This document shows, in pieces, positions 3,344 to 36,279 of a DNA stretch of 36,279 nt (within the stretch, counting starts at the first letter, position 1; each line of letters starts with the position of its first letter). The notes under the pieces were generated by a model. It was not told the DNA's origin. It saw only the letters and a program-made list of their open reading frames with translations, and searched no databases. The stretch is taken from NCBI GenBank assembly GCA_964364745.1, contig CAYINJ010000002.1:1-36279 (forward strand). Reading direction: 5' to 3'. This stretch comes from an uncultured Gammaproteobacteria bacterium. GTDB taxonomy: Bacteria; Patescibacteriota; Patescibacteriia; JACRDY01. Made by a program: the position numbers and the translations under genes.

Positions 3344-3354
3344 GAAGTCAATTT

Positions 3355-4962: not shown

Positions 4963-4988
4963 AGGGGGAGAAAACGACAAAGGGAAAA

Positions 4989-14908: not shown

Positions 14909-15766
14909 ATGGACCAAGCTCTGCCCCAGTCAACTCCGTCTGGCATCCTACCAGTTGGCGCCTTACTCCGCCACGCCTGGGAGACCTTCAGTGGTCACCT
15001 GAAACAGTATCTGCCATTGTCGATTGTGGTCATAATTTTCCCGGTTATTATCTCGGCCTTGACCGCCAATTGGCTGACTGACTTACCCCAAAACCCCACC
15101 GCGGCTGATTGGACGGCCCTGACTAACCAACTGTCGACCAACGGGCCCCTCATTGGGTTAATCTTCTTCGTCGCCGTGATCGCTGCCGCCGTCTTAGGTG
15201 TCTTAGGCGCGCTGGCCATGATCCACGTAGCCAAGGACTCGAGCCGGTCGGCTGGTCAAGCCCTGAAAGCGTCGCTGGGGCAATTTTGGTCGTATCTGTG
15301 GATCGCCGTCCTGATCTTTTTGTTTGTGGTTGGCGTCATGCTTAGCGCGGGTATTATCTTGGCTGTCTTAGTGAAATTAGCTAACTTACTTGGGAGCGCC
15401 TCGGTCGTCTTTGGCGCCATCTTAGGCGGCCTCGCTTTAGTCGCCGCGGCGGTGTATGTGGTCTACCAAACTGTCCGCTGGACCTTTGCCTATTACATTT
15501 TGGTTGATGAGGGTCTGACCGGCCGCACCGCCTTGCGCCGCAGCGCGGCAGTGGTGACCAATCGCTGGTGGGCCGTGGTGGGACGTTTCATTGTTTTGGG
15601 TTTGATCGTGATGGTGGCTCAAATGATCATCGGCGCCGTGTTGTCGGCGGCCGGCGGCGCTCTTGGCACCATGGTGGCTCAATTTTTGATCAACATTGTC
15701 GTCGCGCCAATTAGCATCATCTACGCCTACACGATTTACCACAACCTGCGTGCCAATCAGCACTAA
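14909..15766 (+). CDS. Polytopic hypothetical membrane protein
   Basis: 285-aa ORF with about 6 long hydrophobic segments. No family recognised. Confidence 0.75.
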   Translation: MDQALPQSTPSGILPVGALLRHAWETFSGHLKQYLPLSIVVIIFPVIISALTANWLTDLPQNPTAADWTALTNQLSTNGPLIGLIFFVAVIAAAVLGVLGALAMIHVAKDSSRSAGQALKASLGQFWSYLWIAVLIFLFVVGVMLSAGIILAVLVKLANLLGSASVVFGAILGGLALVAAAVYVVYQTVRWTFAYYILVDEGLTGRTALRRSAAVVTNRWWAVVGRFIVLGLIVMVAQMIIGAVLSAAGGALGTMVAQFLINIVVAPISIIYAYTIYHNLRANQH

Positions 15767-18296: not shown

Positions 18297-19109
18297 ATGC
18301 CCCAATCGTTTTCTGACCCGACGACTGGCGGCAGCCAGGGGGAACTGCGGCGGAGTCAGCAGGCCGCTCGGCGACAACGAGCCACTGAACCGCTGACCGC
18401 GCCGGCCTACCAACCAGGTGAGGCCAAGACCTCCGCTGATGGCTTAGGCATCACTCGGCGTCAGTTGACCGCCGCCGGGCAGGAGCGACTCCAGGCCAGC
18501 CAAGGATTATCCGGCGGTCTGGACGCCCGCCGACAATTGATTGATGAGCAACGAGCTGACCGCCAAACCGAGGCAAGTGCCGGTAAACTATTTCAAGAAC
18601 ATCGACAAGCCCGCCGAGCGGCCCGCGGATCAGAAAAATCAAGGGGTCCGTTGGGGCAAGCGATTGGTGAGACCGCCCGCAAAACCGCGTCAGCTGAATT
18701 ACTAAAACAGGCCTGGTTAAACTTAATCGACAGTATTGGTTTGACTTTTCTATACATCTTCTTCCATTTTTGCGCTCGTTACATCGCCGGTAGTCAATCC
18801 TTTTGCGCCTTTGGTGAAGAGTGGTTTATCGCTCCCAGTTCGGGAATGAAAAGTGCCGCCAAAGCTGGGACTACTGGCTCGGCCAAAGCGGCCGCTAAAA
18901 ACCGGGCTAAAGATAGCGTCTCGTCAAGCCAGGGCGGTGGCGATGATAGCGCCACCTTACTGGAACTCGCTAGCAAACCGGTGGAAGTGGCGGAATTGGT
19001 GGTCTTCGGACTGTTGGCCATCTTACTAATGATCGCCCTGGCCGCGCCATTGGTCGGCCTCTTATCAATCGGGTGGTTCTGGCTGGAAGTGGCCAGCGTC
19101 ATATCCTAA
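18297..19109 (+). CDS. Hypothetical membrane protein (disordered Arg/Gln/Ala-rich N-terminus, C-terminal TM helices)
   Basis: 270-aa ORF with ATG at 18297. TM-like segments GLTFLYIFFHFCARYIAG and VVFGLLAILLMIALAAPLVGLLSIGWFWL. First gene of the pilin-module cluster. Confidence 0.65.
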   Translation: MPQSFSDPTTGGSQGELRRSQQAARRQRATEPLTAPAYQPGEAKTSADGLGITRRQLTAAGQERLQASQGLSGGLDARRQLIDEQRADRQTEASAGKLFQEHRQARRAARGSEKSRGPLGQAIGETARKTASAELLKQAWLNLIDSIGLTFLYIFFHFCARYIAGSQSFCAFGEEWFIAPSSGMKSAAKAGTTGSAKAAAKNRAKDSVSSSQGGGDDSATLLELASKPVEVAELVVFGLLAILLMIALAAPLVGLLSIGWFWLEVASVIS

Positions 19110-19137
19110 CAAAAACTTTTCATCTCACCTTTTACAT

Positions 19138-20370
19138 ATGAGCGATCGTTTGAAAAAAATTCTCTTCATTGTTGGTTTCATCGTCATCACGGTGCTGTTG
19201 GGTTACGCGCTGTATGTCCTATTTTTACGGCAAGCGCCAGCGCCAACCGCACCGCCAACCAATGAACTACCGACCGGCGGTCTGCCGACAGCCGGGCTCC
19301 AGGGTGAGCCAACCTACATCAATGTCAACGGCCAGCTCGTCCCAGCCGCCAACGTCAATGGCACTCCCCCATCGACCATTGATTCCTTTGCTCGCGGTGG
19401 CGTCACGGCGGTGACTGAAGTTAGCAACACTAAGATTCGCGCTATGCAGTTTGGTCCGGACGGCAAGTCGTTAGTCGGCTACGATCCCACCAACGGTAAA
19501 TTTTTACGTTACAACCCTGACGGCACGACTACCGCCATGACCGATGCCGCCTTCCCCAACGCCCGCGATATCGTCTGGGCGCCGGACAGCAATAAAGTGA
19601 TCGTCACTTTTCCGGACAACACCAACGTCTATTATAACTTTAAGACCAAAAAACAGATCACTTTCCCCAGCCACTGGAAAGAATTCGAGTTTTCCTCCGA
19701 CAGTAATAAGTTGGCGTTCAAGAACATGCAACTTGATCGGGAAAACCGCTGGGTGACGGTGACTAATGACGACGGTTCGGCCGGTCGGACCATTGCTCCC
19801 ATTGGCGACAACTCGGATAACATCTCCATCATGTGGTCGCCAGACAGCCGGGTGGTCGGCAATTACCGCGAAAGCATCGACTTCGATCGACAGTACCTGA
19901 TCTTCATCGGTCAAAACCAAGAAAATCTTCCCAGTACCATTATTGAAGGTCGGGGATTTGACGGGAAATACACGCCGGACGGCAGCAACTTGCTCTACAG
20001 CGTCTACTCCTCGTTCACTGACCTCAAACCGAATTTGTGGTTTGTCACCGCCAGCGGTGATCAGACCGGTTTGTTGCGGGTGAACTTAGAGCTCAATACT
20101 TGGGTCGACAAGTGCGCCTTTGCCACTTCATCCACGGTGTACTGCGCGGTGCCTCAATCGCTACCGAAGGGCGCCGGACTGGTCCGCGACATTGCCGACA
20201 CCACCCCAGATAACTTTTATAAAGTGGATCTCCGGACCAGCACCAAGACCCTAGTGGCCGTGCCCGATGGATCATTCACCGCTGAAGATGTCACCGTTAG
20301 CGCGGATGGCAAAACCCTGTATTTTACTGATAAGTCCACCGGGACGGCCCATCAGTTGCGATTAAAATAA
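19138..20370 (+). CDS. Membrane-anchored TolB-like beta-propeller (PD40 repeat) protein
   Basis: N-terminal TM helix ILFIVGFIVITVLLGYALYVLF, followed by repeated PD40-like units: FGPDGKSLVGY, YNPDGTT, WAPDSNKVIVTF, WSPDSRVVG, YTPDGSNLLYS, VSADGKTLYFT. Confidence 0.8.
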   Translation: MSDRLKKILFIVGFIVITVLLGYALYVLFLRQAPAPTAPPTNELPTGGLPTAGLQGEPTYINVNGQLVPAANVNGTPPSTIDSFARGGVTAVTEVSNTKIRAMQFGPDGKSLVGYDPTNGKFLRYNPDGTTTAMTDAAFPNARDIVWAPDSNKVIVTFPDNTNVYYNFKTKKQITFPSHWKEFEFSSDSNKLAFKNMQLDRENRWVTVTNDDGSAGRTIAPIGDNSDNISIMWSPDSRVVGNYRESIDFDRQYLIFIGQNQENLPSTIIEGRGFDGKYTPDGSNLLYSVYSSFTDLKPNLWFVTASGDQTGLLRVNLELNTWVDKCAFATSSTVYCAVPQSLPKGAGLVRDIADTTPDNFYKVDLRTSTKTLVAVPDGSFTAEDVTVSADGKTLYFTDKSTGTAHQLRLK

Positions 20371-20376
20371 TTGCCT

Positions 20377-21495
20377 ATGCGGAGGGTATTATTAGTGACA
20401 ATTCTCGCCCTCTTGAGTTGGCAGTTTTTGCTGTTAGCGCCGGTCGCTTTAGCGGAAGCCCCCCAATCACTGCTTTTTGAAAAACCCACCCTCCAGGTTC
20501 AGTTTCCTTCCCTCCAATTTACTGATTCTGAAAACATCATTGCTAAGGGCCAAGGCAAGATTAAGTATTTTGCGATCCCCTGGATTGCCGAGTATATCAC
20601 CGCCGCTTACCGCTTTGGCGTGGCCATCGCCGGGGTGTTGGCCGTGATTATGATTATCGCTGGCGGATTTGTCTGGATGACCGCCGGCGGCAATTCTAGC
20701 CAAGTCGACACGGCCAAAACCTACATCATTGGCGCCCTGGCTGGTTTAGTGTTGGCGCTGGGCAGCTATACCCTCTTGTGGCTGATTAATCCCAACCTCA
20801 CGCAACTGCCTTTCCTGCGGGTGCCGGTAATTCAGCGGGTTGGTTTGGGGGACTTTTGTCCGCTAGTGGTGTCAAGTCAACAAAAAATATTTACTCTTAA
20901 AGAAGATGGTACGGCCGACAAAGAGGTTCCGATCGGCACAACTATACCATGTGGAAAGCGGCTATTTTTGTCCGACGGAGCTGACAACCAATGTATGGGG
21001 TTAGGAGATTGCTCGGGCAGTCAATTGTGCTTGCCAGACTTCAGTAAGGATATTGTGGCGACCGGTCAAGGTAGTCTAAAATTCGAATTTGATTGTTTCT
21101 CTTCTGCTCAAGACCAGTGTAAAAAGTTAAATGACAATCAGGCCGATAAGGTAGGTTTACCGCACCAGCAATCAACCTGTAACCTAATCAACAGCACGCT
21201 CGCCTATCAATCACCGAACACTGAAAATCAAGGTCGGTGCGTGTGGGTGGATAAGAGTATCATTACAGAAATTATTACTGGCGGCTGGTCTGACGACGGC
21301 TGTTACTGGTGTCCGGATGATCGTTACCAAGATATGCTAACAACATTTAAAGAATACAAAATCAACCCGATTGATGATTGTGCCAACGGACTGGGTAAAA
21401 TTTACGGCCAACTTACGGGGATTGAGGCGCTCGGAGAGCTGTTAAGCAGCGAAGATAAAGAGGCCTGCCTAGCACGGTGGTGCGGTGGCCAGTAA
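20377..21495 (+). CDS. Secreted pilin-module protein 1: signal peptide + VirB2/TrbC-like two-helix module + C-terminal 14-Cys domain
   Basis: ATG at 20377 (MRRVLLVTILALL...ALAEA signal). Conserved block IPWIAEYITAAYRFGVAIAGVLAVIMIIAGGFVWMTAGGNSSQVDTAKTYIIGALAGLVLALGSYTLLWLINP. The C-terminal domain of about 210 aa has 14 Cys and no recognised family. Confidence 0.8.
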   Translation: MRRVLLVTILALLSWQFLLLAPVALAEAPQSLLFEKPTLQVQFPSLQFTDSENIIAKGQGKIKYFAIPWIAEYITAAYRFGVAIAGVLAVIMIIAGGFVWMTAGGNSSQVDTAKTYIIGALAGLVLALGSYTLLWLINPNLTQLPFLRVPVIQRVGLGDFCPLVVSSQQKIFTLKEDGTADKEVPIGTTIPCGKRLFLSDGADNQCMGLGDCSGSQLCLPDFSKDIVATGQGSLKFEFDCFSSAQDQCKKLNDNQADKVGLPHQQSTCNLINSTLAYQSPNTENQGRCVWVDKSIITEIITGGWSDDGCYWCPDDRYQDMLTTFKEYKINPIDDCANGLGKIYGQLTGIEALGELLSSEDKEACLARWCGGQ

Positions 21496-21499
21496 TTAT

Positions 21500-22651
21500 A
21501 TGACCCGTTCTTTCTTTTTTGCTTTAATCGCTAGCGCCATTATCTTAATCCCCCAGGTCAGCTTGGCCCTCCTGACTGGCCCTTCGGTTGGTTCGACCTG
21601 CTGTATCTGTGTGAAAGATGGCGTATATGTGGCGGAAGGGGCGGCGTTTCAGTCCCCCGATGGCTTTGGAGCCAAGTGTGCTTCAGAAAGTTGTCAGGTT
21701 GAATATTCGGCTTGTACCGATCAGGCCGTAAAAGACAAGATTAATGGATTGAACACCACGGTCAACTCGGTTACGCCCCTGGTCACGCCCACCACCCAAG
21801 TCGTCATTCCCGGACTGACCTTCACCAAAACACTTGACCTCAAAGACGGGGCCAATGGCTTGAGGTTTTATGAAATACCGTGGATTGCTGAATATATCAG
21901 CGCCGTCTATCGCTGGGGTGTCGGTATCGCCGGCGTGTTGGCGGTGGTGATGATTATCATCGGTGGCTTCACTTGGCTGACCGCCGGGGGTAACTCGAGC
22001 CAAGTTGAAACGGGCAAGAAATATATCATCGGCGCCTTGGCTGGTTTGGTCTTTGTCATGAGTAGTTATACTATTTTGTGGTTGATTAACCCCGAGTTGG
22101 TCAAACTGAAGTCGATTGCTATTCCGTATGTTGAACGATTATCACTGGAGATTCCCGAGTCAGAGCCCGAAAACATTGCCGCCGAAAAAACTGGTAATTT
22201 GACTGCCGTGGGCGAGCGGAAAACAACCGAATTCATCGTCATTCATACTGCCGCTGGACTGCAGAGTCGCAACGAAGTCGACGCTTTCCATCGTACTAAG
22301 GGTTGGGCTGGTATTGGCTATAATTTCTACATTGAACGCAACGGCCAGTGGGTTGAAGGCCGAGGTGAAAGCAAAGTTGGCGCTCACGCGGTGGGCTACA
22401 ATGCTAAAAGCATTGGCATTTCTTATGCCGGCTGCGTTAATTTTCAAGTCGCCAATCAACCTTTGGCGACCGCTCTAGCCAAAGAAACTATCACTCAAAC
22501 CCAACTCGATACTTTAATCGAACACATTAAACAACTACAGCAAAAATATAATATCCCGCGCAATAAAGTACTGGACCACCGTGAAACTGGTGCGCCTAAG
22601 GCCTGCTCTTGCCTGAATATGGACGAGATTAGAGCCAAAATTAATCCGTGA
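21500..22651 (+). CDS. Secreted pilin-module protein 2: signal peptide + 6-Cys module + two-helix pilin-like module + N-acetylmuramoyl-L-alanine amidase (Amidase_2/PGRP type)
   Basis: ATG at 21500. Conserved block IPWIAEYISAVYRWGVGIAGVLAVVMIIIGGFTWLTAGGNSSQVETGKKYIIGALAGLV...SYTILWLINP. C-terminal amidase motifs: EFIVIHTAAG, GWAGIGYNFYIERNG, GAHAVGYNAKSIGISYAG, LDHRE. Confidence 0.85.
   Translation: MTRSFFFALIASAIILIPQVSLALLTGPSVGSTCCICVKDGVYVAEGAAFQSPDGFGAKCASESCQVEYSACTDQAVKDKINGLNTTVNSVTPLVTPTTQVVIPGLTFTKTLDLKDGANGLRFYEIPWIAEYISAVYRWGVGIAGVLAVVMIIIGGFTWLTAGGNSSQVETGKKYIIGALAGLVFVMSSYTILWLINPELVKLKSIAIPYVERLSLEIPESEPENIAAEKTGNLTAVGERKTTEFIVIHTAAGLQSRNEVDAFHRTKGWAGIGYNFYIERNGQWVEGRGESKVGAHAVGYNAKSIGISYAGCVNFQVANQPLATALAKETITQTQLDTLIEHIKQLQQKYNIPRNKVLDHRETGAPKACSCLNMDEIRAKINP
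21573..21753 (+). repeat. 181-bp direct repeat, copy 1 (encodes the 6-Cys N-terminal module of paralog 2)
   Basis: Identical to 22742-22922 except for one base (gtaaaagacaag versus gtaaaggacaag). The protein segment LTGPSVGSTCCICVKDGVYVAEGAAFQSPDGFGAKCASESCQVEYSACTDQAVKDKINGLN is identical in both. Confidence 0.9.
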
Positions 22652-22653
22652 TT

Positions 22654-23931
22654 ATGCGACTCTTTTATTTTCTTCTCCGATTAACTGTCAGCGTTGCCAT
22701 GGTGGTTTTGGTTTTGCTTCCACAAGCTGGGGTAGCCTTATTGACTGGCCCTTCGGTTGGTTCGACCTGCTGTATCTGTGTGAAAGATGGCGTATATGTG
22801 GCGGAAGGGGCGGCGTTTCAGTCCCCCGATGGCTTTGGAGCCAAGTGTGCTTCAGAAAGTTGTCAGGTTGAATATTCGGCTTGTACCGATCAGGCCGTAA
22901 AGGACAAGATTAATGGATTGAATACTAAGATTGAACTTCTCCCCCTGACCCCGCCCGATCTCCAAGTCGACATCCCTGGTTTTCCTAAATTCAGTACCGA
23001 GCTGGAGTTAGACGAGCAAAAGACCTTTTACAATATTCCTTGGATCGCCGAGTATATCAACGCCGTCTACCGTTGGGGGGTGAGCATTGCCGCTGTTTTG
23101 GCGGTGATCATGATTATCGCCGGCGGCCTGACCTGGCTGACGGCCGGCGGCAACAGCAAACAGGTGGAGACCGCCAAGACCTACATCATCGGCGCTTTGA
23201 CCGGTCTGGTGTTGGCCTTGGGCAGCTACACTATTTTGTGGCTGATCAATCCGCAACTAACACTCCTCAAGCCGTTGCGGATTCCCTACGTGCAAAATGT
23301 GGCGCTTGAAGTCGGGCCGCGTATTTCTTCATACTTGATTGCTAATCCCGGCCAAGAAGGCAAAAAAGAACAGTTTAACAACGCTGCTTGTCCAACCAAA
23401 GAAGAGGCCCAGGCCGGTTTTGATGGGTTTATTACTTCTTACTACGCGCCAGCTTATGGTGAAAAAGGCAACTACAGTAGTTTTGAGTGCAACGTAGCGA
23501 TGCAGTGTTCTTGTCCTGGTCCGGGTGGCAATAAATATCATAAAGACGAGTCAAAAACCTGTCGCTTCCCGGCTAAAGTCCTCGGTAAGGGTTTCAGTGA
23601 TAACCCCTGCATGCCCATTCCGGCCGGCAGTATTCCTGGCCAGAGTTATTGTAATAAAAGTGCTTCGGGCACCGCACCAGTTGCTTTCAAAACCGCGGCC
23701 GCTGATATTGCGGGAGACAAGATCGGGGTCAATTGCTGGAGCGTTGGTGACCAGTTTACGATTGAAGGCATTGGTGGCCAAGCGGCTGGTCCCTGGACGG
23801 TCCAAGATAGCGGGTCGGATATTAAGAGTCGCCATTTCGATCTCTTTGTCGGTACTAATTTCCAAGCCACAAAATCAATGGGTGGCGTCTACAAGATTAA
23901 GTTCACCAAGTGTCAAAAATGTGGCTTCTAA
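22654..23931 (+). CDS. Secreted pilin-module protein 3: signal peptide + 6-Cys module + two-helix pilin-like module + C-terminal 3D (MltA-like) domain
   Basis: ATG at 22654. Conserved block IPWIAEYINAVYRWGVSIAAVLAVIMIIAGGLTWLTAGGNSKQVETAKTYIIGALTGLV...SYTILWLINP. C-terminal GFITSYYAP...AADIAGDKIGV...WTVQDSGSDIKSRHFDLFVG matches the 3D-domain pattern DtGgaIkg.riDlf. Confidence 0.85.
   Translation: MRLFYFLLRLTVSVAMVVLVLLPQAGVALLTGPSVGSTCCICVKDGVYVAEGAAFQSPDGFGAKCASESCQVEYSACTDQAVKDKINGLNTKIELLPLTPPDLQVDIPGFPKFSTELELDEQKTFYNIPWIAEYINAVYRWGVSIAAVLAVIMIIAGGLTWLTAGGNSKQVETAKTYIIGALTGLVLALGSYTILWLINPQLTLLKPLRIPYVQNVALEVGPRISSYLIANPGQEGKKEQFNNAACPTKEEAQAGFDGFITSYYAPAYGEKGNYSSFECNVAMQCSCPGPGGNKYHKDESKTCRFPAKVLGKGFSDNPCMPIPAGSIPGQSYCNKSASGTAPVAFKTAAADIAGDKIGVNCWSVGDQFTIEGIGGQAAGPWTVQDSGSDIKSRHFDLFVGTNFQATKSMGGVYKIKFTKCQKCGF
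22742..22922 (+). repeat. 181-bp direct repeat, copy 2 (encodes the 6-Cys N-terminal module of paralog 3)
   Basis: See copy 1. The offset between copies is 1169 bp. Confidence 0.9.
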
Positions 23932-26806: not shown

Positions 26807-27292
26807 TTATAACTTAAAGAGCCGCTCGACTGCGTGCGAAACCGGCTCGTCAGTCCGGTCCAGGTCTTCATCGATGTAGTCCAGGAGTAACTGCCGAACC
26901 GCCACTGGGTCTTGGCCTTGCAGCGGTATATGGAGTCGGGGTTGCCAAAAACTCTTAGGGTTGATCAGTAAGAGTTCAACCTCTGGCGGATCATAGACCA
27001 CCGAAAAGTCAGTTAGTTCGGCGAAGGGATAAAACCAACTCCCCAGCCGCACCCCGGTTTCATAGACCCCAAAGGTCAGCTCGGTCGGCACCGTGGTGTG
27101 GCGCAAGAACAATACTACCGCCGTCAAAATTATAATGATGGCAAACAGGAAATTCGTCACTACCACGGAGTAGATCAGGAGTGACAATGCCACCAGACCA
27201 GCGACGGCATACCACCCCTGGTTTCGTTGATGTTGGAGGAATTCCGGGAAATGCCAAGTGATCAGTTTTTTGCCGTATGATTTGTCAGTCAT
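26807..27292 (-). CDS. Hypothetical membrane protein (two TM helices plus a soluble C-terminal domain)
   Basis: ATG at 27292 (MTDKSYGKKLITWHFPEF...). The longer ORF-track start at 27352 would overlap the tRNA promoter. Hydrophobic segments WYAVAGLVALSLLIYSVVV and FLFAIIIILTAVVLFL. Confidence 0.7.
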   Translation of the reverse strand: MTDKSYGKKLITWHFPEFLQHQRNQGWYAVAGLVALSLLIYSVVVTNFLFAIIIILTAVVLFLRHTTVPTELTFGVYETGVRLGSWFYPFAELTDFSVVYDPPEVELLLINPKSFWQPRLHIPLQGQDPVAVRQLLLDYIDEDLDRTDEPVSHAVERLFKL

Positions 27293-27302
27293 AGCTATTT
27301 CA

Positions 27303-27331
27303 TTGACATTACTCGATAAAAACCGTATACT
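27303..27331 (+). promoter_or_regulatory. Sigma70-type promoter for the tRNA-Ser pair
   Basis: TTGACA (27303-27308), a 17-nt spacer and TATACT (27326-27331), about 60 nt upstream of tRNA-Ser(UGA). Confidence 0.6.
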
Positions 27332-27399
27332 ACCACCGTTCTTTTGCCTCACCTGGAGAGATGGCTTGCGCCCTCATTAGATTAGATCCATGAACATTT

Positions 27400-27509: not shown

Positions 27510-27600
27510 GGAAAGGTGGCCGAGTGGCTGAAGGCGGCGGTTTGCTAAACCGCTATAGGGTGTTAAAGCCCTATCGAGGGTTCGAATCCCTCCCTTTCCG
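27510..27600 (+). tRNA. tRNA-Ser (anticodon GCT)
   Basis: Class II tRNA. Acceptor stem GGAAAGG/CCTTTCC, anticodon loop TTGCTAA, long variable arm, and T-arm GAGGG TTCGAAT CCCTC. Confidence 0.93.
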
Positions 27601-27608
27601 ATGAAAGA

Positions 27609-27635
27609 CGCTTCTCAAGATTGAGGGGCGTTTTT
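27609..27635 (+). terminator. Intrinsic terminator after tRNA-Ser(GCU)
   Basis: cgcttctcaa (27609-27618) pairs with ttgaggggcg (27621-27630), including two G-U pairs. It is followed by ttttt (27631-27635). Confidence 0.6.
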
Positions 27636-27758: not shown

Positions 27759-27780
27759 CGAATCCCTCCCTTTCCGATGA
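27759..27780 (+). repeat. 22-bp exact duplicate of the 3' end of tRNA-Ser(GCU) plus 4 flanking nt
   Basis: cgaatccctccctttccgatga at 27759-27780 is identical to 27583-27604. Confidence 0.85.
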
Positions 27781-27783
27781 TAG

Positions 27784-27810
27784 GAGCTCCTCCTGGCGAG
27801 GAGCTTTTAT
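27784..27810 (+). terminator. Plus-strand terminator-like hairpin directly after the duplicated tRNA 3' end
   Basis: agctcctc / gaggagct stem with loop ctggc, followed by tttt. The T-run is on the plus strand even though the adjacent gene (sodA) is on the minus strand. Confidence 0.5.
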
Positions 27811-28416: not shown

Positions 28417-29058
28417 TTATGAATCGGTCGTGGATCCGTGAGCAATCGCCGCGACGCCGATCCAGTGAGCGCCGCGGGCGCGAAGTGTTTGAGTTACTGC
28501 CGTCATGGTCGCGCCAGTGGTGACCACATCATCAACTAACAGAATTCGGTCCGGTGGCGGGGCGGTAATTGTAAAGGCATCAGCGACATTGGCGAAACGA
28601 CGGTCGCGGTCCAACGTCGTTTGGCTGCTGGTGAAGCGCTGACGGCGGACCAGCCGATCTTGATATGGCCAATGATGGCGACGAGCCAATTCTTGAGCAA
28701 TCGCCCCGGCTTGATTGTAGCCCCGCCAACGGTGTCGCCGGCGATGGAGCGGTATCGGCACGACAGTTGTCACTGGCCGATCCGGAATTATTTCGGCCAA
28801 GAGTCCACCTAGTGAGCGGGCGGCCGCCGAGATGAACTGATACTTGGCGGCGCGGATCAGTGTGGCTAACAGCGGGTCGGCATATTGGCCCAGTAGATAA
28901 ACGGCGTCAACGCCCGCCAATTCAATCCCCGGTGCCGGCCGGTTGGTCGCCTGCCACCGCTCGTGACACCGCGGACAAACCACTCCTTGGTCCCAAGCCC
29001 CACAGCCAAAACAGCTGACCGGAAAGATAAGCTGGCTGATTGATGATCCTAGTGACAT
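28417..29058 (-). CDS. comF: ComF family protein (phosphoribosyltransferase-like competence protein)
   Basis: N-terminal Cys4 zinc finger (CFGCGAW...CPRCH) and PRTase motif ILLVDDVVTTGATM. Confidence 0.85.
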   Translation of the reverse strand: MSLGSSISQLIFPVSCFGCGAWDQGVVCPRCHERWQATNRPAPGIELAGVDAVYLLGQYADPLLATLIRAAKYQFISAAARSLGGLLAEIIPDRPVTTVVPIPLHRRRHRWRGYNQAGAIAQELARRHHWPYQDRLVRRQRFTSSQTTLDRDRRFANVADAFTITAPPPDRILLVDDVVTTGATMTAVTQTLRARGAHWIGVAAIAHGSTTDS

Positions 29059-29115: not shown

Positions 29116-29700
29116 CTATTGCCAATAGGCCCCGTCCACCAGCCATGACTGGCCGGCCGTTACGAAATCAAGCCGTAAATCCTGATTAATCACCTGGTCT
29201 GGTTGGCCATTCTGGCTGGTTCGTCGCTGGGTGTGGACCAAAATCGTCGCTGCCGTCCCACTCATCGTCACCGCTTCGGTCGCCAGCGCCCGTGTTGACA
29301 CGACGATGTTTTGATCGGCGGTTTTGGCGATCTGGGTTTGGATATAACCGTCTGACCACTGCCGCATCGACTCGGTCATCATCGGTTGCACTTCACGGAT
29401 ATTCCGAAAATTGGCGGTACTAGCATAGCTGCCGAAGCGTTCGGCGAAAGTCATCGCTAGACGCTCAACGCTGATTTGCTGCTGCTGGCTTTCCGTTAGC
29501 GTCGGCGTGTTCGCCGTGGTGACGATGTCTTCCCCGCTGCGACCATCAATTACCAATCGGTTGGCCGCCGTGACGGTGTTTTGGGTGGTGGTGGCCAACT
29601 CGGGAGTAGCGGCCCGTTGCCACCAGAAAATCACGCCGACCACGATCACCAAGATCACGACCACACCACCGAGAATCAACATTAATTTTTGACGGTCCAT
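29116..29700 (-). CDS. Membrane-anchored hypothetical protein, possible VirB8/ConB-like (NTF2-like) T4SS component
   Basis: N-terminal TM helix LMLILGGVVVILVIVVGVIFWW, then a domain of about 150 aa with a helix-then-beta pattern. It lies 12 nt downstream of the virB4-like gene. The fold assignment is a guess from position and size. Confidence 0.6.
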   Translation of the reverse strand: MDRQKLMLILGGVVVILVIVVGVIFWWQRAATPELATTTQNTVTAANRLVIDGRSGEDIVTTANTPTLTESQQQQISVERLAMTFAERFGSYASTANFRNIREVQPMMTESMRQWSDGYIQTQIAKTADQNIVVSTRALATEAVTMSGTAATILVHTQRRTSQNGQPDQVINQDLRLDFVTAGQSWLVDGAYWQ

Positions 29701-29712
29701 AAATTATGATGG

Positions 29713-31575
29713 TTAAATGGCGGCGTCCGGAATCGCTCCCGGCGCGGCCGGCTGTCCTTGCTCGGCGGCAAATTGTTCTTTGGCCGCTTGGATTTCCAAT
29801 AATTGTTGGGGGTTGGTAGTGATCAGTTGATCTTCGTTCGGTGAAGCCACCACTTCGATGGCCGCGTGTTTATTGCCAGCGAAGAAAATCCCCTGCCCGA
29901 CGGCCGACTCCAGCAATAGATACTTTTCCCCTTCGGTTAACAAAAATGTTTTTTGGACTCGATCAATCGACGCCGGTGACTGCTTCATCAACAGCTGTAG
30001 CGCCGAGTTGTTGACGATCGCTTGGCCGTAGGGCGAAAGTAAAAAGTCATTGACATCTTGGGTGATAGTGGTGACGCCGAGATAGTACTTGCGGCAGCGT
30101 TTGACCAAGGCATAGATAAACTTGGCCGAGTCCTCTTGTTGCATCAACCACCAGGCCTCATCGATGATCAACAGTCGCTTTTTGCTCTGGGACCGAACGA
30201 CGTTCCAAATGTAGTTGACGAGGTTATAGATCGCCAGCGGCCGGAGCTCGTCTTCGAGATCGCGGACCGAAAAACAAACCAACTGGTTGTCCATGTCAAC
30301 GTTAGTCGGCCGATTCAGCAGCCCGGCAAAGGTGCCTTCGGTATGCTTTTTCAGTCGCAGCGCGACGTTGGCGCCGCCCTCCATCCCCTCCAAAATATCA
30401 ACTAAATCCTGCATAATTGGCGGCTCGACCGTCGCCAAATCCGACTCGGGAGTGATATCTTTTTTGGCGTAGGTCTCCAGCAGCGCCCGGTCCACGATCG
30501 AGTCCTCTTCGGCCGTCAGCGAACCGACCATCAGTCGCACCAACCCCTTGACGGTGATGACGGCGCTGCGAATAATATCTTCGACCGTGAAATCCTTGTC
30601 CACCGGCCGCGGCAGGTCAAAGGGGTTGACTTTACTGTCGGAGGCCAGCGAAATGTTGATGTAAGTACCACCGACGGCCTCACACAGCCGCTGGTATTCT
30701 TTTTCCGGATCAATCACGATAATGTCAGTCCCCAGCATCAAGCTGCGCAAGATCTCCAGTTTAACCGTGTAGCTCTTGCCGGCGCCGGCCGTGGCAAAGA
30801 CCACCATGTTGGCGTTTTGGAGTGAGAAGCGGTCGAACAGAATTAAGCTGTTATTGTGGCGGTTGATGCCGTATAAAATACCGTTATTTGATGACAATTC
30901 AAAGGAGATAAAGGGAAATGACGAGGCAGCCGGTGATGTATTCATGTTGAAAACGACAGTGAGTTCATCTCGGCCGAGCGGCAAAGTGGAAGTAAACCCT
31001 TGTTCGGCCTGATAGAGCACATTGCGCGAGTAGACCAGCTTCGAGCCAAAAATGTCTTCAAGGTTGCGGGTGCGATCTTCAAGTTGTTCGAGGGTGTCGG
31101 CGTACAGCGTGACGTACAAAGCATACTGAAAGAAGTGCTCGATACCTTGGGTCAAGTCATCGCGCAGTTTTTCGATGTCTTGTAGCGCCGTTTCCCGCAA
31201 GGGATCGCGCGGCGCGCCTTTTTCCCGGTCGGCACTCAATTCGGCTTCTAAATTCCCGGCTCGTTTCTTGAGATCTTTTAAGATCGCGCCGGCCTTGACC
31301 GGATAGAAATGCATGGCAATATCAATCGGCGTCGGGAAGTTGATGATCGGCACGAACCAACCGACGGCAATATAGCGCGGATAGGTAATGACAAACGCCG
31401 TCCGGACATATTTGTTGCCCAGCCGGACATAAGTCGACTGAATATCCATCGCCGATGGCGCGATCAGGTCAATGATCGAGATCGTGCCGGCGCGATAGCG
31501 CTGCTCTTCGATCAGCGCTTCTTTACCGATCGCGACCGTGGCGTCGACAGCGGGTTTTTTAGTAAATAAGGCCAT
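29713..31575 (-). CDS. virB4: VirB4-family type IV secretion ATPase (Gram-positive/TrsE-like type)
   Basis: 620 aa. Walker A VVFATAGAGKSYTV, Walker B RLLIIDEAWW, and the N-terminal VirB4 domain pattern (YVRTAFVITYPRYIAVGWFVPII). Confidence 0.9.
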   Translation of the reverse strand: MALFTKKPAVDATVAIGKEALIEEQRYRAGTISIIDLIAPSAMDIQSTYVRLGNKYVRTAFVITYPRYIAVGWFVPIINFPTPIDIAMHFYPVKAGAILKDLKKRAGNLEAELSADREKGAPRDPLRETALQDIEKLRDDLTQGIEHFFQYALYVTLYADTLEQLEDRTRNLEDIFGSKLVYSRNVLYQAEQGFTSTLPLGRDELTVVFNMNTSPAASSFPFISFELSSNNGILYGINRHNNSLILFDRFSLQNANMVVFATAGAGKSYTVKLEILRSLMLGTDIIVIDPEKEYQRLCEAVGGTYINISLASDSKVNPFDLPRPVDKDFTVEDIIRSAVITVKGLVRLMVGSLTAEEDSIVDRALLETYAKKDITPESDLATVEPPIMQDLVDILEGMEGGANVALRLKKHTEGTFAGLLNRPTNVDMDNQLVCFSVRDLEDELRPLAIYNLVNYIWNVVRSQSKKRLLIIDEAWWLMQQEDSAKFIYALVKRCRKYYLGVTTITQDVNDFLLSPYGQAIVNNSALQLLMKQSPASIDRVQKTFLLTEGEKYLLLESAVGQGIFFAGNKHAAIEVVASPNEDQLITTNPQQLLEIQAAKEQFAAEQGQPAAPGAIPDAAI

Positions 31576-31578
31576 AGA

Positions 31579-32277
31579 TTAACCACTAAGCTGAATCTTG
31601 CCCACGGCCGCTAACGGTTCTTGTTCGGAAGTGTCGGGGTTGTATGAGTTGTAGTACAGCTCAATCAGCCCTTGGGTGTCGAGTCGGGTGGCCGATAACC
31701 CCACTGATCCCAGCCCATTAGCTGTCTGCCCCACTCGCTGTTCTAGTTCTTTCATCCGTTGCTCAAACTTTTTGGCACTTAATTTTACCAGCGACGCCGG
31801 CGTAAATAACTCTTGGAGTCGGGACCAAAAACTCCGCTGTTTATCGGAGAGCGGATCGTACGGCACGACAACATAGAACCGCTTGGTCATGATGTCGCCT
31901 AAGCTGATCAGCTCACCGACGTACTGGCGGTAGTCGCTGATTTGATTGCGCAACAATTCATTGCTTTGTTCCTTTTCTATTTTTTCCAAATTTTGCAAAT
32001 AGGGAGTGATGTCGGTTTTCCGTGACTGGACGACAATTTGCAGCGGGTAATTCAAGGAGTTCAAAAACCCCATGTAAGCGCTAATGATCGCCTCTTGTTC
32101 ACCGGTCGACTTCAGCGCGAAGTTGATACTAGACACCATCAGTACGCCCCGCAGAGTGCCGTCGCGCATGACGACCGTACTGTTGCGAATTTCCGCGATC
32201 GGCAAGCTGCGTTGGGTCGCGGGGTATTTACTTTTTGGTTTTGACGCCATAATTGTTTGATTGGTCGTCGAGCTCAT
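31579..32277 (-). CDS. Hypothetical soluble protein resembling a stand-alone VirB4 N-terminal domain (no ATPase motifs)
   Basis: 232 aa. IAEIRNSTVVMRDGTLRGVLMVSSINFALKSTGEQEAIISAYMGFLNSLNYPLQIVVQSRK follows the N-domain pattern of VirB4/TrbE proteins, with no Walker A. The stop is 3 nt before the virB4 start. An alternative ATG lies at 32250. Confidence 0.7.
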   Translation of the reverse strand: MSSTTNQTIMASKPKSKYPATQRSLPIAEIRNSTVVMRDGTLRGVLMVSSINFALKSTGEQEAIISAYMGFLNSLNYPLQIVVQSRKTDITPYLQNLEKIEKEQSNELLRNQISDYRQYVGELISLGDIMTKRFYVVVPYDPLSDKQRSFWSRLQELFTPASLVKLSAKKFEQRMKELEQRVGQTANGLGSVGLSATRLDTQGLIELYYNSYNPDTSEQEPLAAVGKIQLSG

Positions 32278-32707
32278 GCGACGAGTAGGCCCCGCCAGTG
32301 TTGACTACCAGCGCCAGCTCGTCTAGCCGAGAGCGGGCGGCAAAATGTTTGACCGGGACCACCAGTTCTTTCGTTTCCTCAATCGCCGGGGCCAGCAATT
32401 CTTTAACTTCCACTGCCGTCAGTTGTTTATTCCACAGCCGGCGGCGGGAGCGCTTCAGGGTCTCCATGACATTGAGGAAAAAATAATGGAACGGGCGGCC
32501 GTTGACCTTGAGAAACGCCACGATGCCAAAAATACCAAAGGTCAGTACGCCGAAGATCACGAAGGCCCAAAAATCAAACAGCTTATACTCGGCGGCGATT
32601 AAGAGCATGCCGACTAACATAATAATAAACTGCCGGACCGTGATCGGCCCGATGATTTTCGGTTCGACATCAATGAATTGCGGGACTAGAAAATGATCAA
32701 GGGCCAT
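32228..32707 (-). CDS. PrgI-family (VirB3-like) small membrane protein
   Basis: FLVPQFIDVEPKIIGPITVRQFIIMLVGMLLIAAEY followed by a second TM helix FVIFGVLTFGIFGIVAFL. Typical PrgI architecture and typical position upstream of virB4. Confidence 0.75.
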   Translation of the reverse strand: MALDHFLVPQFIDVEPKIIGPITVRQFIIMLVGMLLIAAEYKLFDFWAFVIFGVLTFGIFGIVAFLKVNGRPFHYFFLNVMETLKRSRRRLWNKQLTAVEVKELLAPAIEETKELVVPVKHFAARSRLDELALVVNTGGAYSSHELDDQSNNYGVKTKK

Positions 32708-32717
32708 AGCCGTGTCT

Positions 32718-33803
32718 CTATTCTAACACGTTATTCAACTTCGCTAAAGCGGCAAATTCAGCGGCGGTCAGGGTTGGCTGCCTTGCGGCGGCTCGCGTCG
32801 CCAACACGGCTGGCAGCGGCTGACCCGTCTCGACGCTATCTTTACCAACCGCCAAATACAGGCGGTGGACTTCACTGGCCTGCCAAGCGGCAATAGCCGC
32901 GACCCGCTTCGGCCAGCCCTCACGTTCCAGTAGGTCAATTTTTCCTTTAATTTTTTCAGCGGCCCGAGCCGGATTGGCGTCCAGCGCGTGCCAATCGACC
33001 AGTCGAAATTGTCGTAACTCCTCAATTGGCCCGACCAACCGAACCCCCGGGCGAATATCAGTAAATTTGTCAGCCCGCGGCGCCAGCGGTCGACTCGGCC
33101 CTGGTGATGCCGTGGTCGGCGACATTGCTTTAGCCGGTCGTTGGAATCGCTTCGTCAGGCGGCCGAGCCAATTGGCTGCTTTGGCCGCCCCGGCGGTCGG
33201 TAGCGGTTGACTAATAAATGGCTGGCTCGTCGCTGGTGGCTGCGGCCTCAAACTAGCCACCGGCGGACTGACGGGCTGGCTGGTCGGCCGGGGCGGCCGA
33301 GCCGGTGGTCGACTGGTTAAAATCTGCACGGTGCGATCGACGGCGGCTGGCCGAACAGCGGGTGGTGGCGGCATCAATTCGTGCGCTAGTTCGGTCGGGG
33401 TAAACCGCGGTAACGGCCGAGGTGGTGTGGACGGTCCTGGCGCGTCGGTCGCTGACGATTCAGTTTTATCAATCAAAGTTAATATGGCTCCGGCCGCCGA
33501 CTCGGACAACCCCACTCCACCACTGACGGTCTCACGAACTAACAACTCCTTGGTTTGCCAACTAGTGCGAATCCCCTTCCAGTCAGCCAGCACCGCGTTT
33601 TTGAGCCGGCGATTCAGCAACTCATCCGTGATTGGCAACGACAGTTTCTTGATGGCTGACTCAAGTTCTTGCCAACGCTGCTCGTCCGCCGACCATCCCC
33701 CGGCTGGCTGACTGGCCGGCGGGGTTGGGTCCAAAAGCGAAAAATGTCCGCGAGGATCGCGGATTGGAATAGCGTCAAGATTATTCAAAATATCGTCGGC
33801 CAT
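32718..33803 (-). CDS. Hypothetical protein with central proline-rich linker
   Basis: ATG at 33803 (MADDILNNLDAIP...); the ORF-track TTG at 33854 would overlap the upstream gene. Contains a central PPRPLPRF...RPPARPPRPTSQPVSPP segment. No TM helix, no NTPase motif. Confidence 0.7.
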   Translation of the reverse strand: MADDILNNLDAIPIRDPRGHFSLLDPTPPASQPAGGWSADEQRWQELESAIKKLSLPITDELLNRRLKNAVLADWKGIRTSWQTKELLVRETVSGGVGLSESAAGAILTLIDKTESSATDAPGPSTPPRPLPRFTPTELAHELMPPPPAVRPAAVDRTVQILTSRPPARPPRPTSQPVSPPVASLRPQPPATSQPFISQPLPTAGAAKAANWLGRLTKRFQRPAKAMSPTTASPGPSRPLAPRADKFTDIRPGVRLVGPIEELRQFRLVDWHALDANPARAAEKIKGKIDLLEREGWPKRVAAIAAWQASEVHRLYLAVGKDSVETGQPLPAVLATRAAARQPTLTAAEFAALAKLNNVLE

Positions 33804-33816
33804 GGTTAGATGCGCT

Positions 33817-35235
33817 TTAGGCCTGCCACCGGAATTGATTTTTGGCCATGTCAAAGTAAGCCAGCTGTCGATACTGTTCCCGGCCGGCTCGGGCCAAACT
33901 ATTAGCCACTTTCAGGCCCAGCCGAGCCGCCTCGTCTTCGGCTAAGTGTAATTGCCCTTCGAAGATAGCTTCAAGAAATAGTCGTAACCAGCGCGGCGCG
34001 GTGGGATTGAGCCGGAATTGGCGAATATCTTCTGGCCGGTTTTGTTGGGTCAGGCCGGCCTCAATCACTAGGCCTAGGCCGGTGGGCTGGGCCACCGCAT
34101 CGCCGAGCGTGCCGAGTTCGGCGAGGGCCATAATTGCCGCCACCACTTCAATTTTGTCAGGGGATTTGCTTTTGGCTAATAAACCCAACTGCTCGGTTAG
34201 CTTGGCGCTGTCCCGTTGATTGGTGGCCAAGAGCTGCTGCTGGCGCTCGGCGATGGTCTGACTTTCAGTGGGGTCACCTTGATATCGCCGCATGATTTCC
34301 TCTCGGGGGATGATGGCTGGTGCTGGTGCTGCTCTGGGCGACAGCGGCACCGGGGCTGGCGGTCGGGTGACGACTGACCTAACCGCCGTAGCCGGTGACG
34401 GCGCAATCACCAACGGCGCTGGCGCCGCTAGCTGGCTAGTCGGAACTGATGGCTGGACTGGCGTTTGCATCCGGGTCATTTCTTCATCAACCAAGCGAGC
34501 AATTTTGCCGTCGGGGTCAACTTTTTCCAGGCCGCCTTCTCGATATTCATAAAGATTGCCTTCGACATCAGAGGTAAACAGCACGTCTTCGTTGCCGGCC
34601 GGGGTCAAGGAAGAAAACTTTAACTCTTCATAAAGGTTAAATAGCCCTTCGACCATGGTGCGTTCGGCGGCAGGCAGTTTATTGAAAGTCAGGTGTTTGG
34701 TCAGCCAATCACGGTAAGCCAGCTCATCAGCCGGTTTGGCGCCAAAGGTCTCGACGTATTCTTCCAGCCAATGCTTGACCGTCGGCGTAACCGTTTGGTT
34801 ATCAACGTGTTGGATCGCCAGCGTGGTTAACACTTCATTATTATTCAGCAGCGCGTCGCGCAATTGACCACGATATCGGTCACGTTCCTCGATGAACAAT
34901 TCGCTTCGCAGGCGGTTTTTCATTTTGTCGGCCACGGTAAACCCGCCATCCGCTTCCGCCCGCAAACCGGCGACCAGCTGCTCTTTGAACAACGCCAACA
35001 CTTCATTCCACGGGATGGCTGTCAGCGCCACCCACTTCACTGGCGGCAGGAGTGCCTGGTATTGGGCATAGACATCTGGCGCTTGCTCCGCGACCCGCTG
35101 CAGGCGCAGCAACTGACCGAGATATTTCAATAAATCAACCGCTTGGCTGACATCGTCAGCCGCGACAATATCCGCCGCCATTTTTTGAACGCGGTCTTGA
35201 TTGGTTTGATCAGTTAAAATAAATGGCGTAACCAT
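33817..35235 (-). CDS. Hypothetical protein with Pro/Ala-rich linker
   Basis: 472-aa ORF with ATG at 35235 and a tight operon junction on both sides. No recognisable motifs and no TM helix. Confidence 0.75.
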   Translation of the reverse strand: MVTPFILTDQTNQDRVQKMAADIVAADDVSQAVDLLKYLGQLLRLQRVAEQAPDVYAQYQALLPPVKWVALTAIPWNEVLALFKEQLVAGLRAEADGGFTVADKMKNRLRSELFIEERDRYRGQLRDALLNNNEVLTTLAIQHVDNQTVTPTVKHWLEEYVETFGAKPADELAYRDWLTKHLTFNKLPAAERTMVEGLFNLYEELKFSSLTPAGNEDVLFTSDVEGNLYEYREGGLEKVDPDGKIARLVDEEMTRMQTPVQPSVPTSQLAAPAPLVIAPSPATAVRSVVTRPPAPVPLSPRAAPAPAIIPREEIMRRYQGDPTESQTIAERQQQLLATNQRDSAKLTEQLGLLAKSKSPDKIEVVAAIMALAELGTLGDAVAQPTGLGLVIEAGLTQQNRPEDIRQFRLNPTAPRWLRLFLEAIFEGQLHLAEDEAARLGLKVANSLARAGREQYRQLAYFDMAKNQFRWQA

Positions 35236-35243
35236 ACGTCAGC

Positions 35244-36279
35244 TTAGGTGGTTTTGGCTCGAGCGGCGACCTTTTTTATCTCGTCCTCTACTTCGGCCTT
35301 AATCGCGTTCATTGAGCTTTCCCCAATCTTAACGCCTTTCTCGCCAGCTACTCGCTTCATCATACTGACAATCTGTGATCCTAACACTTCCGTAATTTCC
35401 TGTTCATTAGAGAGGAGGTCAGCTAACGTGTCCGGCCGCAAATAACCAATATTCTTCTTGGCGTCATTACCCGTAAAGTTATTCTTCTGCATTTTCAGCC
35501 AAACCCGACCCTGGAGCTCAAGGTGGCGGGTGTTTTCGTCACCCACGGACATGATTTGAGTTGATTTGACCTGCCGCAGCTGGTTGGCCACCGTTCCGCC
35601 TTGGCCGACTAACTTGTTCAACGCCATGCGAGCGTTAATCTCCGGCGGGTGCTTGGTGAATGCCCCATCGGAGTATTTATAACCGGCCACAAAGTTGCTG
35701 TCGCCGTTTTGGTGGGCAACATAGGCCACGTTTTTCAGTAACGACATGCTGGCTTGATCGCCCATGCTGCCGCGCGCCACCATCTGCTCTTGGCGGAACG
35801 CCTCCAACCCTTTGACGTTGCCTTCATATCCCTGCATCGACAGCACTTCGCCTAATTTGCCGGTTTTGGCCGCTAGTTGCATCAAAATCCTGACTTCATT
35901 TTTGTTGGCGGACGCGATCGCCGATCCGAGCGCTTCAGTCATTTCATCCAAATCCAAACTTTGTTCTTCGAGCTGCTTCATCCGCTCACTGCTTCCTTCT
36001 CGGCCAGCCGCAGTGGCCATATCGGCCGAAGCTCCTGCCCATTTCCTGCGGCGTTCGGCAGCGGTACCGGCCTGTTCACTAAGCACCTGATCACGCCGCG
36101 CTGCTTGTTCATATTGCCGCTTCAGCGCGTCTTTATCCGCCCCGGGCTGCGTGGCGGCCAACTGCGCGGCGATGATTTGTCGTTCTTGATCTTTTTTGTT
36201 GTAAGCATCAATTGCGTTGATTCGCTGGGTCAAATCGTCCTCTCGTTTTTTAGCCGCCGGTCGTTGTTCTGTGACATCA
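35244..36279 (-). CDS. Hypothetical protein, 5'-truncated by the window edge
   Basis: The ORF-track start at 36233 is a TTG. The frame remains open (..DVTEQRPAAKKREDDL..) up to base 36279, so the gene probably starts outside the window. The visible N-terminal part is charged and coiled-coil-like. Confidence 0.7.
   Translation of the reverse strand, partial: DVTEQRPAAKKREDDLTQRINAIDAYNKKDQERQIIAAQLAATQPGADKDALKRQYEQAARRDQVLSEQAGTAAERRRKWAGASADMATAAGREGSSERMKQLEEQSLDLDEMTEALGSAIASANKNEVRILMQLAAKTGKLGEVLSMQGYEGNVKGLEAFRQEQMVARGSMGDQASMSLLKNVAYVAHQNGDSNFVAGYKYSDGAFTKHPPEINARMALNKLVGQGGTVANQLRQVKSTQIMSVGDENTRHLELQGRVWLKMQKNNFTGNDAKKNIGYLRPDTLADLLSNEQEITEVLGSQIVSMMKRVAGEKGVKIGESSMNAIKAEVEDEIKKVAARAKTT

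Follow-up and report, generated by a model that had tools for sequence, protein, structure and literature searches.

A Probable Inner-Membrane Core Operon of a Patescibacteria-Type Type IV Secretion System on a Contig of 36279 Nucleotides

Introduction

Few additions to the superfamily of type IV secretion systems (T4SSs) are regarded as being as intriguing as that of Patescibacteria, and no other T4SS is known to be essential to the organism that carries it. In Southlakia epibionticum the system is encoded by SEML1_0006-0019 (PMC10633639); it includes pilins, lacks any recognisable coupling protein or relaxase, and is indispensable for epibiotic growth (Wang 2023, Cell, PMC10633639). A survey of the phylum recorded VirB4 in 2417 of 3035 genomes, as a clade nested in MPF_FATA (Quinonero-Coronel 2025, PMC12102498). 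TrsD, PrgI, VirB6 and VirB2-like genes were found to be widespread and relaxases rare, and in the class ABY1, where the few detectable VirB8 homologues concentrate, comF, recG and radA lie near virB4 (PMC12102498). These systems are treated as a new T4SS subgroup in a recent review (2025 FEMS review, PMC12857230). Here we analyse a T4SS-related operon on the minus strand of contig CAYINJ010000002.1, at 29116-36279; the whole stretch of 36279 nucleotides (nt) is referred to below as the window.

We consider it highly probable that this locus is the inner-membrane core operon of a Patescibacteria-type T4SS, derived from MPF_FATA, chromosomally fixed and vertically inherited. It is the published Patescibacteria system and not an unrecognised oddity; the initial annotation, which was made from the letters of this stretch, took it for a chromosomally fixed machine and not a conjugative element, a reading that is right but had already been published (PMC10633639, PMC12102498, PMC12857230). 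The window is a clean example of the ABY1-type arrangement and brings no new principle. It does offer three small, checkable refinements, namely a VirB8-like gene after virB4, a probable extended VirB6, and a co-operonic comF.

Results

The window represents the entire deposited contig: the cluster entries of two of its proteins give 36279 nt as the longest contig, and an exact-protein look-up with VirB4 returned nothing, so that the extension proposed in the initial annotation is not feasible from the deposited data. Seven co-directional open reading frames (ORFs) follow one another on the minus strand between 29116 and 36279, spaced by -50 to +12 nt. Read in the direction of the genes, these are the 3' end of what is probably an extended VirB6-like gene, coding for a C-terminal hydrophilic domain only (35244..36279); a soluble protein of 472 amino acids (aa), between the VirB6-like gene and the next (33817..35235); a soluble protein of 378 aa, or 361 aa per NCBI, directly upstream of prgI (32718..33854); a PrgI/VirB3-like membrane protein of 159 aa (32228..32707); a TrsD-like protein of 232 aa (31579..32277); a VirB4 ATPase of 620 aa (29713..31575); and a VirB8-like protein of 194 aa (29116..29700). 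A gene for a ComF-like protein, with a zinc ribbon and a phosphoribosyltransferase-like domain (Pfam DZR_2 and Pribosyltran), follows on the same strand (28417..29058). The coordinates of the tightly packed or overlapping genes described in the initial annotation were reproduced. The seventh, of 329 aa or more (35244-36233+), is not a complete gene but a fragment cut by the end of the sequence. In scans for promoters and terminators, the counts did not clearly rise over shuffled expectation.

For comparison we used 80 related loci (L001-L080) from Patescibacteria metagenome-assembled genomes (MAGs) that are GTDB representatives; since many of these loci are cut, the locus counts obtained with tblastn are lower bounds. 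By this measure trsD is present in 77 loci, prgI in 74, comF in 70, the gene of the 194-aa protein in 60 and that of the 378-aa protein in 58. The closest relatives of the VirB4 protein are all found in Patescibacteria MAGs, with labels such as Magasanikbacteria, Uhrbacteria and Buchananbacteria. Many of the locus records are titled "uncultured Gammaproteobacteria bacterium" and one "Candidatus Methylomirabilis sp.", which are evidently generic or wrong labels. The gene order VirB6ext-(soluble proteins)-PrgI-TrsD-VirB4-VirB8like-ComF recurs in most of the 80 loci, and is also seen in an independently annotated 215-kb contig of the Joint Genome Institute (JGI), with RecG downstream. The comparison of conservation and synteny that the initial annotation had proposed was thereby carried out, and the order proved to be kept in most of the related genomes; among related loci whose flanking DNA is long enough, most are syntenic.

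The VirB4 protein scores 351 bits against NCBIfam conju_CD1110 (cutoff 325) and matches Pfam P-loop_TraG at 2e-28. Its Walker A motif, GAGKS, lies at aa 264-268 (30772-30786) and its Walker B motif, IIDEAWW, at aa 470-476 (30148-30168), so that the ATPase first recognised by these two motifs also has a family score over the cutoff. VirB4 is 69-81% identical to its counterparts in the 80 Patescibacteria MAGs; plasmid VirB4 proteins are at most 35% identical (best 30-35%), and the best of them, of the CD1110 family, come from Streptomyces and Bacillales. There are also weak matches to the archaeal DNA importers CedB and CedD. The protein has the architecture of the C-terminal two-thirds of its family, aligning from position 179 of conju_CD1110 onward. 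Directly upstream, the 232-aa ORF, left unassigned in the initial annotation, matches the NCBIfam TrsD/TraD model NF041427 at 6.8e-7, which is under the family cutoff, and aligns to positions 98-281 of VirB4_plasma and 20-97 of conju_CD1110, the N-terminal parts of both models; its orthologue in locus L081 bears the Pfam domain PF26593 (TraC-like). Because the matches fall in N-terminal model parts and the 620-aa VirB4 begins at position 179 of CD1110, this ORF is assigned as TrsD-like, a predicted free-standing homologue of the VirB4 N-domain.

The two genes are in the same reading frame, parted by a TAA stop and one codon before the ATG of virB4. In 75 of the 80 related loci TrsD has an ORF of its own, with variable spacing and frame. 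Since relatives have two separate ORFs with other spacings, the split of trsD and virB4 is taken as the original arrangement and not as damage to a single gene. Stop-codon recoding at the in-frame junction was also considered and is ruled out by the separate ORFs in different frames among relatives. The third member of this group, the 159-aa protein, scores 28.4 bits against Pfam PF12666 PrgI (cutoff 27) and has hydrophobic segments at aa 18-36 and 48-66, in agreement with its first description as a PrgI/VirB3-like protein with two transmembrane (TM) segments.

The 194-aa protein has a single N-terminal TM segment, and the initial annotation had guessed from its position that it is VirB8-like. 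A profile of its family, built from 57 sequences of the related loci, found PrgL of pCF10 (7AED) as top match in the PDB, at E=0.006. Its structure, the prediction of which had been among the proposed checks, was modelled with AlphaFold2 from an alignment of 94 sequences, at a mean predicted local distance difference test score (pLDDT) of 88.9. The model shows, besides a TM helix and a linker, three helices and a curved sheet of four strands, and when it was compared with the PDB by Foldseek the best matches were mostly members of the VirB8 family, with probability 1.00 and target-normalised template modelling scores of up to 0.71. These include CagV, the IcmL-like lpg0120, PrgL, TcpC, the VirB8 proteins of Brucella and Agrobacterium, DotI, TrwG and TraH; other proteins of NTF2-like fold, ARC6/PARC6 and the CaMKII hub, are also among the matches. 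The positional guess is thus borne out by the predicted fold, the Foldseek matches and the profile match to PrgL, which describe a bitopic VirB8-like protein with an N-terminal TM helix, a linker and an NTF2-like domain. Its gene stands directly after virB4 in 60-71 of the 80 related loci. A small addition is the support, at the level of predicted structure, for the VirB8-like nature of the gene that immediately follows virB4 in most of this lineage's loci.

No stop codon interrupts the seventh ORF as far as base 36278, and it stays open to the contig end. Its 344 visible residues align to residues 628-951 of the 957-aa protein found at the same locus position in L001, the closest relative (phmmer, 3e-21). 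A search of 1.84 billion representative proteins returned 16 homologues, of which the long ones (897-1347 aa) all match through their C-terminal third; their N-termini are polytopic, with conserved motifs in common. The motifs of the family are GW..VRD..NMFF, NFS and RIV.LW..V.SP. In 57 of the 80 related loci, an ORF of 830-1832 aa with five or more N-terminal TM segments lies on the same strand, 2.7-6.2 kb upstream of virB4. Twenty of the 23 loci where no such long polytopic ORF is seen hold less than 6.7 kb of upstream DNA, two of the other three have a shorter or split version, and the third shows a 2017-aa ORF with no TM segment. The sole Pfam family recurrently matched by the membrane domain of these orthologues is TrbL/VirB6 (PF04610), which is matched by 18 of the 57 locus members (best 2.3e-6) and four of nine database members, three of the matches spanning about positions 3-195 of the 215 in the profile.

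The operon thus most likely starts with a gene for an extended VirB6, of which ~600 N-terminal codons, those of the membrane domain among them, would lie past the contig end. The initial annotation had reported no polytopic VirB6 within the window and had called the system minimal. Neither description is supported: because the open ORF matches the C-terminal third of proteins with polytopic, TrbL/VirB6-like N-termini, the apparent absence of VirB6 is most likely a truncation artefact, and a contig end can mimic a "missing component". A 10-sequence profile of the C-terminal domain gave no match in the PDB, and a profile of the N-terminal region gave no meaningful match to PDB sequences. Judged from the orthologue alignments, an extended VirB6 with a conserved C-terminal domain that lacks a PDB match is a small addition for this lineage. 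Another candidate for VirB6, a 285-aa protein with 6-7 TM segments (14909-15766), was set aside, given that it has a weak GPDPase_memb match only and that it is never near virB4 in relatives.

A cluster of three pilin genes on the plus strand lies 5-9 kb from the operon. The first, of 374 aa (20371..21495), matches Pfam T4SS_pilin (PF18895) at 19.8 bits, below the cutoff, and no domain could be assigned to its C-terminal half. The second (21485..22651) combines a PF18895 domain at aa 133-198 (35 bits; cutoff 26.6) with an N-acetylmuramoyl-L-alanine amidase domain at aa 247-372 (Amidase_2, 4e-16). The third (22648..23931) joins a PF18895 match of 24.6 bits, again below the cutoff, to a 3D domain of the MltA/Rpf type (27.3 bits). 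The three genes are paralogues with a repeat (D1) common to all of them, and the second and third share a stretch of 191 nt that is 97% identical (D2), which suggests recent gene conversion or duplication. Homologues of the array lie within 10 kb of virB4 in ~13 of the 80 related loci. From these domains, the array is the predicted source of the VirB2-like function and plausibly supplies a VirB1-like function as well. The link that had been drawn between the operon and this pilin-hydrolase array at 20.4-23.9 kb is therefore supported by VirB2-like pilin domains and fused hydrolase domains. A limited full-text literature search for PF18895 or T4SS_pilin, which led only to the 2025 survey and to an unrelated structural atlas, found no description of such pilin-hydrolase fusions.

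Directly upstream of the array, the region 18297-20370 contains a 270-aa gene with a C-terminal TM segment and a 410-aa gene whose product has a TM or signal segment at its N-terminus and gives weak PD40 (beta-propeller) matches. Ten related loci encode a homologue of the 410-aa protein, in several cases close to the pilin genes, and this protein may belong to the pilin module.

Two soluble proteins are encoded between the VirB6-like gene and prgI. The 378-aa protein has no TM segment, and its gene lies directly upstream of prgI among the loci listed as containing it. It has no Pfam or NCBIfam match and no sequence match in the PDB, either alone or as a 49-sequence profile. A profile search of a database of 5.8 billion proteins, in which proline-rich words saturated the candidate list, returned four proteins only, and because of this the AlphaFold2 model is poor (mean pLDDT 55.7). 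It shows helical blocks at 55-135 and 275-378, that is, two small helical domains with proline-rich disordered linkers between them, and Foldseek found nothing at E<0.1. The 472-aa protein has no TM segment save one weak stretch barely over the hydropathy threshold, and no Pfam, NCBIfam or PDB match; homologues (tblastn) occupy the same position in 15 of the 80 related loci. By these counts, the 378-aa protein is a candidate conserved accessory protein, and the 472-aa protein appears to be kept in only a subset of relatives. The two were merged by single-linkage BLAST clustering, but the idea that they are paralogues was rejected on an hhalign probability of 8%, and no relationship between the two families was detected.

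Other families are seen in the relatives. A conserved soluble protein of ~980-1220 aa with no Pfam match is encoded on the same strand directly upstream of the VirB6-like gene in 20 loci (for example L001:12-3227 and L054:175-3108, with 18 other loci), and in 24 loci the VirB6-like gene and the gene of the 378-aa family have a further, unassigned family of ~340 aa between them. Both may represent additional lineage-specific components or substrates.

The operon is surrounded by housekeeping genes. Besides the operon, the window encodes DnaE, PheST, RseP, MurI, PGM, LemA, HtpX, Clp, RecG, SOD and three tRNAs, and the recurrent neighbours in the 80 related loci are RadA, RecG, VanW, Hsp20, ClpP, riboflavin synthase, SufB, RsmB, a class II aminoacyl-tRNA synthetase, cysteine desulfurase and MetK. 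Scans that took in main non-overlapping ORFs of the window, +-10 kb around the related loci and the same distance on the 215-kb JGI contig found no family of type IV coupling proteins (T4CPs), relaxases or integrases. Moreover, no att-like repeats flank the locus and there is no shift in guanine plus cytosine (GC) content in the window. All of this accords with the initial annotation, which had noted the housekeeping flanks, had seen no T4CP or relaxase and no hallmarks of a mobile element in the window, and had based on them its view of a fixed locus, to which the conserved order among relatives can now be added. VirB4 is the most conserved protein of its neighbourhood: across genomes in which it is 69-81% identical, RecG is only 32-49% and ComF 22-45% identical, and the difference from RecG is in keeping with a resident gene under strong purifying selection. 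Taken together, synteny, housekeeping flanks, even GC, the lack of flanking repeats, and the conservation of VirB4 along with its distance from plasmid homologues argue for a system that is probably resident, chromosomally fixed and vertically inherited, with an ancestry in monoderm conjugation, and not an integrative and conjugative element (ICE).

Two further features of the window were recorded. The 3' end of tRNA-Ser(GCT) at 27583-27616 recurs at 27759-27792, just before the end of the sod gene, over 34 nt with 88% identity; this repeat resembles a scar of the att type or a piece of the tRNA, and the limits of the T4SS locus are not set by it. The dnaE gene (1454-4980, minus strand) is divided into two ORFs, one of 541 aa with the PHP and NTPase domains and one of 629 aa with the finger, HHH and OB domains. 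At the junction, near 3355-3430, the downstream frame is already open and encodes a conserved "...ALGLLKIDFLGLKNLT..." upstream of the stop of the first ORF, and for this reason the split is placed as a frameshift within ~75 nt. Either the assembly is wrong at this point or the essential gene really is frameshifted.

The ComF-like gene begins 57 nt downstream of the VirB8-like gene. A comF homologue follows the VirB8-like gene in 70 of the 80 related loci with a median gap of 2 nt, and the gap is at most 100 nt, that is co-operonic, in 53 of 57 loci. Gene order and spacing thus indicate that comF is a conserved part of the T4SS unit in this lineage, which the initial annotation had not seen, and the tight coupling is a small addition. 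Additionally, recG lies within 10 kb in 21 of the 80 loci and radA in 15. A 181-aa protein with a single TM segment and no Pfam match (26807-27352) is encoded between comF and recG in 25 of the 80 loci.

Discussion

For the role of the system we divide the odds about equally among import of DNA or other nucleic acid, export of protein, and pilus-mediated adhesion or some other function. It is possible, if on balance unlikely, that the operon specifies a competence-type T4SS that takes up DNA of the host or the environment, like Helicobacter ComB or archaeal Ced, with single strands passed to the operon-encoded ComF and the nearby RecG and RadA available for processing. ComFC is needed for transformation in Helicobacter pylori, where uptake uses a T4SS. 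The near-constant position of comF after the VirB8-like gene, the recurrence of recG and radA within 10 kb and the weak similarity of VirB4 to CedB and CedD are all consistent with such a role, and the co-localisation of comF, recG and radA in ABY1 has already led to the proposal that DNA or other macromolecules are imported (PMC12102498). However, deletion of comEC in S. epibionticum abolishes competence and not viability, although the T4SS is essential (PMC12857230), so the essential role of the T4SS there is not ComEC-dependent uptake. Furthermore, the adjacency of comF is specific to the class and not general to Patescibacteria T4SSs (PMC12102498), proximity of genes says little about function where the genome is small and dense in genes, and the window has neither ComEC nor DprA.

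A more elaborate version of this idea, which we put forward as doubtful, is that in the ABY1-like lineage the T4SS, firmly wired to comF and with recG and radA close by, imports host DNA by means of a pilus and feeds it into recombination or nucleotide salvage. The soluble proteins of 378 aa and 472 aa, together with the VirB6 C-terminal domain, would then be lineage-specific cytoplasmic adaptors in place of the coupling protein. If true, the machine would be the monoderm counterpart of Helicobacter ComB and archaeal Ced.

It is very unlikely that the locus is an ordinary ICE, or a conjugation module derived from a plasmid, whose relaxase, coupling protein and integrase happen to lie off the contig. 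The assignment of VirB4 by NCBIfam to the family of CD1110, from a CTn2-like ICE, would suit such an element, as would the position of the contig end inside the operon and repeat D10, in which 34 nt from the 3' end of tRNA-Ser recur 176 nt downstream of the tRNA. Yet the repeat encloses only ~140 nt and not the locus, no compositional shift is seen, and dozens of species-level genomes carry the same order amid the same kinds of housekeeping genes, so that presence of the locus at one site in all close relatives, which would speak against an ICE, is largely shown. In addition, the related loci show no relaxase, T4CP or integrase either upstream of the VirB6-like gene or downstream, and relaxases are rare in the phylum, with 109 homologues in 103 of 3035 genomes (PMC12102498).

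That the operon is instead the decaying remnant of an old conjugation system, its split VirB4 and "missing" components being the result of pseudogenisation, might be suggested by the single reading frame of trsD and virB4 and by the frameshifted dnaE elsewhere on the contig, but is extremely improbable given that a separate TrsD of variable spacing and frame is usual among the relatives and is the norm in Patescibacteria and pGO1-type systems (PMC12102498), that all operon ORFs are intact with VirB4 the best conserved of its neighbourhood, and that the homologues are essential in S. epibionticum (PMC10633639).

The identification of the locus as a resident Patescibacteria-type T4SS is itself weakened by several points. 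The matches to PF04610 lie around the Pfam threshold (best 26.0 bits vs 25.9), and the closest orthologue of the truncated protein (L001/P0101) has no Pfam match by itself. The membrane domain of VirB6 is outside the sequence, and we infer its presence in the genome from the orthologues. VirD4-like genes are common in Patescibacteria, usually far from virB4 (PMC12102498), and the negative results for T4CP and relaxase cover one 36-kb contig, so a copy may lie elsewhere in the genome. Finally, every mechanistic step past the identity of the components is drawn by analogy.

With this in mind, the following course can be envisaged for a resident, non-conjugative T4SS. VirB4 hexamers would be docked by PrgI and TrsD onto a membrane platform of VirB6 and VirB8, and their ATP hydrolysis would drive the extraction of VirB2-like pilins and their polymerisation to form a filament or channel at the surface. 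Local opening of the peptidoglycan may be the task of the fused amidase and 3D domains, and the filament or channel would move macromolecules, without conjugation, at the contact with a host bacterium. By analogy with the Southlakia epibionticum homologues, which are essential for epibiotic growth, the T4SS is probably needed for a host-dependent lifestyle.

Comparison with Known Systems

Among T4SSs dedicated to DNA uptake, ComB of Helicobacter pylori and the archaeal Ced system resemble the present one in being machines with a VirB4-type ATPase and no relaxase, and the association with the competence gene comF and the weak similarity of the ATPase to CedB and CedD extend this likeness. In contrast, the outer-membrane core of ComB, made of VirB7, VirB9 and VirB10, is not present here, nor are the CedA-type channel proteins of Ced.

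The MPF_FATA systems compared, namely Trs of pGO1/pSK41, Tra of pIP501, Prg of pCF10 and the CD1110-type system of CTn2, share a larger set of features with the locus. These include a CD1110-family VirB4 (here 351 bits), a separate TrsD as in pGO1, a PrgI-type VirB3, a bitopic VirB8-like protein of the PrgL, TraM or TcpC type, a polytopic VirB6-like protein and cell-wall hydrolase activity, both of which are predicted here, and the lack of an outer-membrane core. Unlike them, the present locus has no relaxase, T4CP, oriT or adhesin, its VirB4 is only 30-35% identical to theirs, and it is chromosomally fixed amid housekeeping genes. Monoderm systems are also normally without VirB2-like pilins, whereas such pilins are encoded here.

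The closest agreement is with the Patescibacteria T4SSs, as in S. epibionticum and the ABY1 arrangement, which likewise combine VirB4, TrsD, PrgI/VirB3, a VirB6 (only probable here) and a VirB2-like pilin array on the chromosome, with relaxase and T4CP absent beside virB4. The neighbourhood of comF and recG and the VirB8-type protein, matches to which are concentrated in ABY1, point to that class in particular. The phylum survey reported ~50 VirB8 homologues and no structural homologue of VirB8 was found in S. epibionticum (PMC12102498), whereas here structure prediction supports a VirB8-like gene, which is found directly after virB4 in most related loci. The locus differs further from the described Patescibacteria systems in its probable extended VirB6-like protein and in the peptidoglycan-hydrolase domains fused to two of its three pilin genes.

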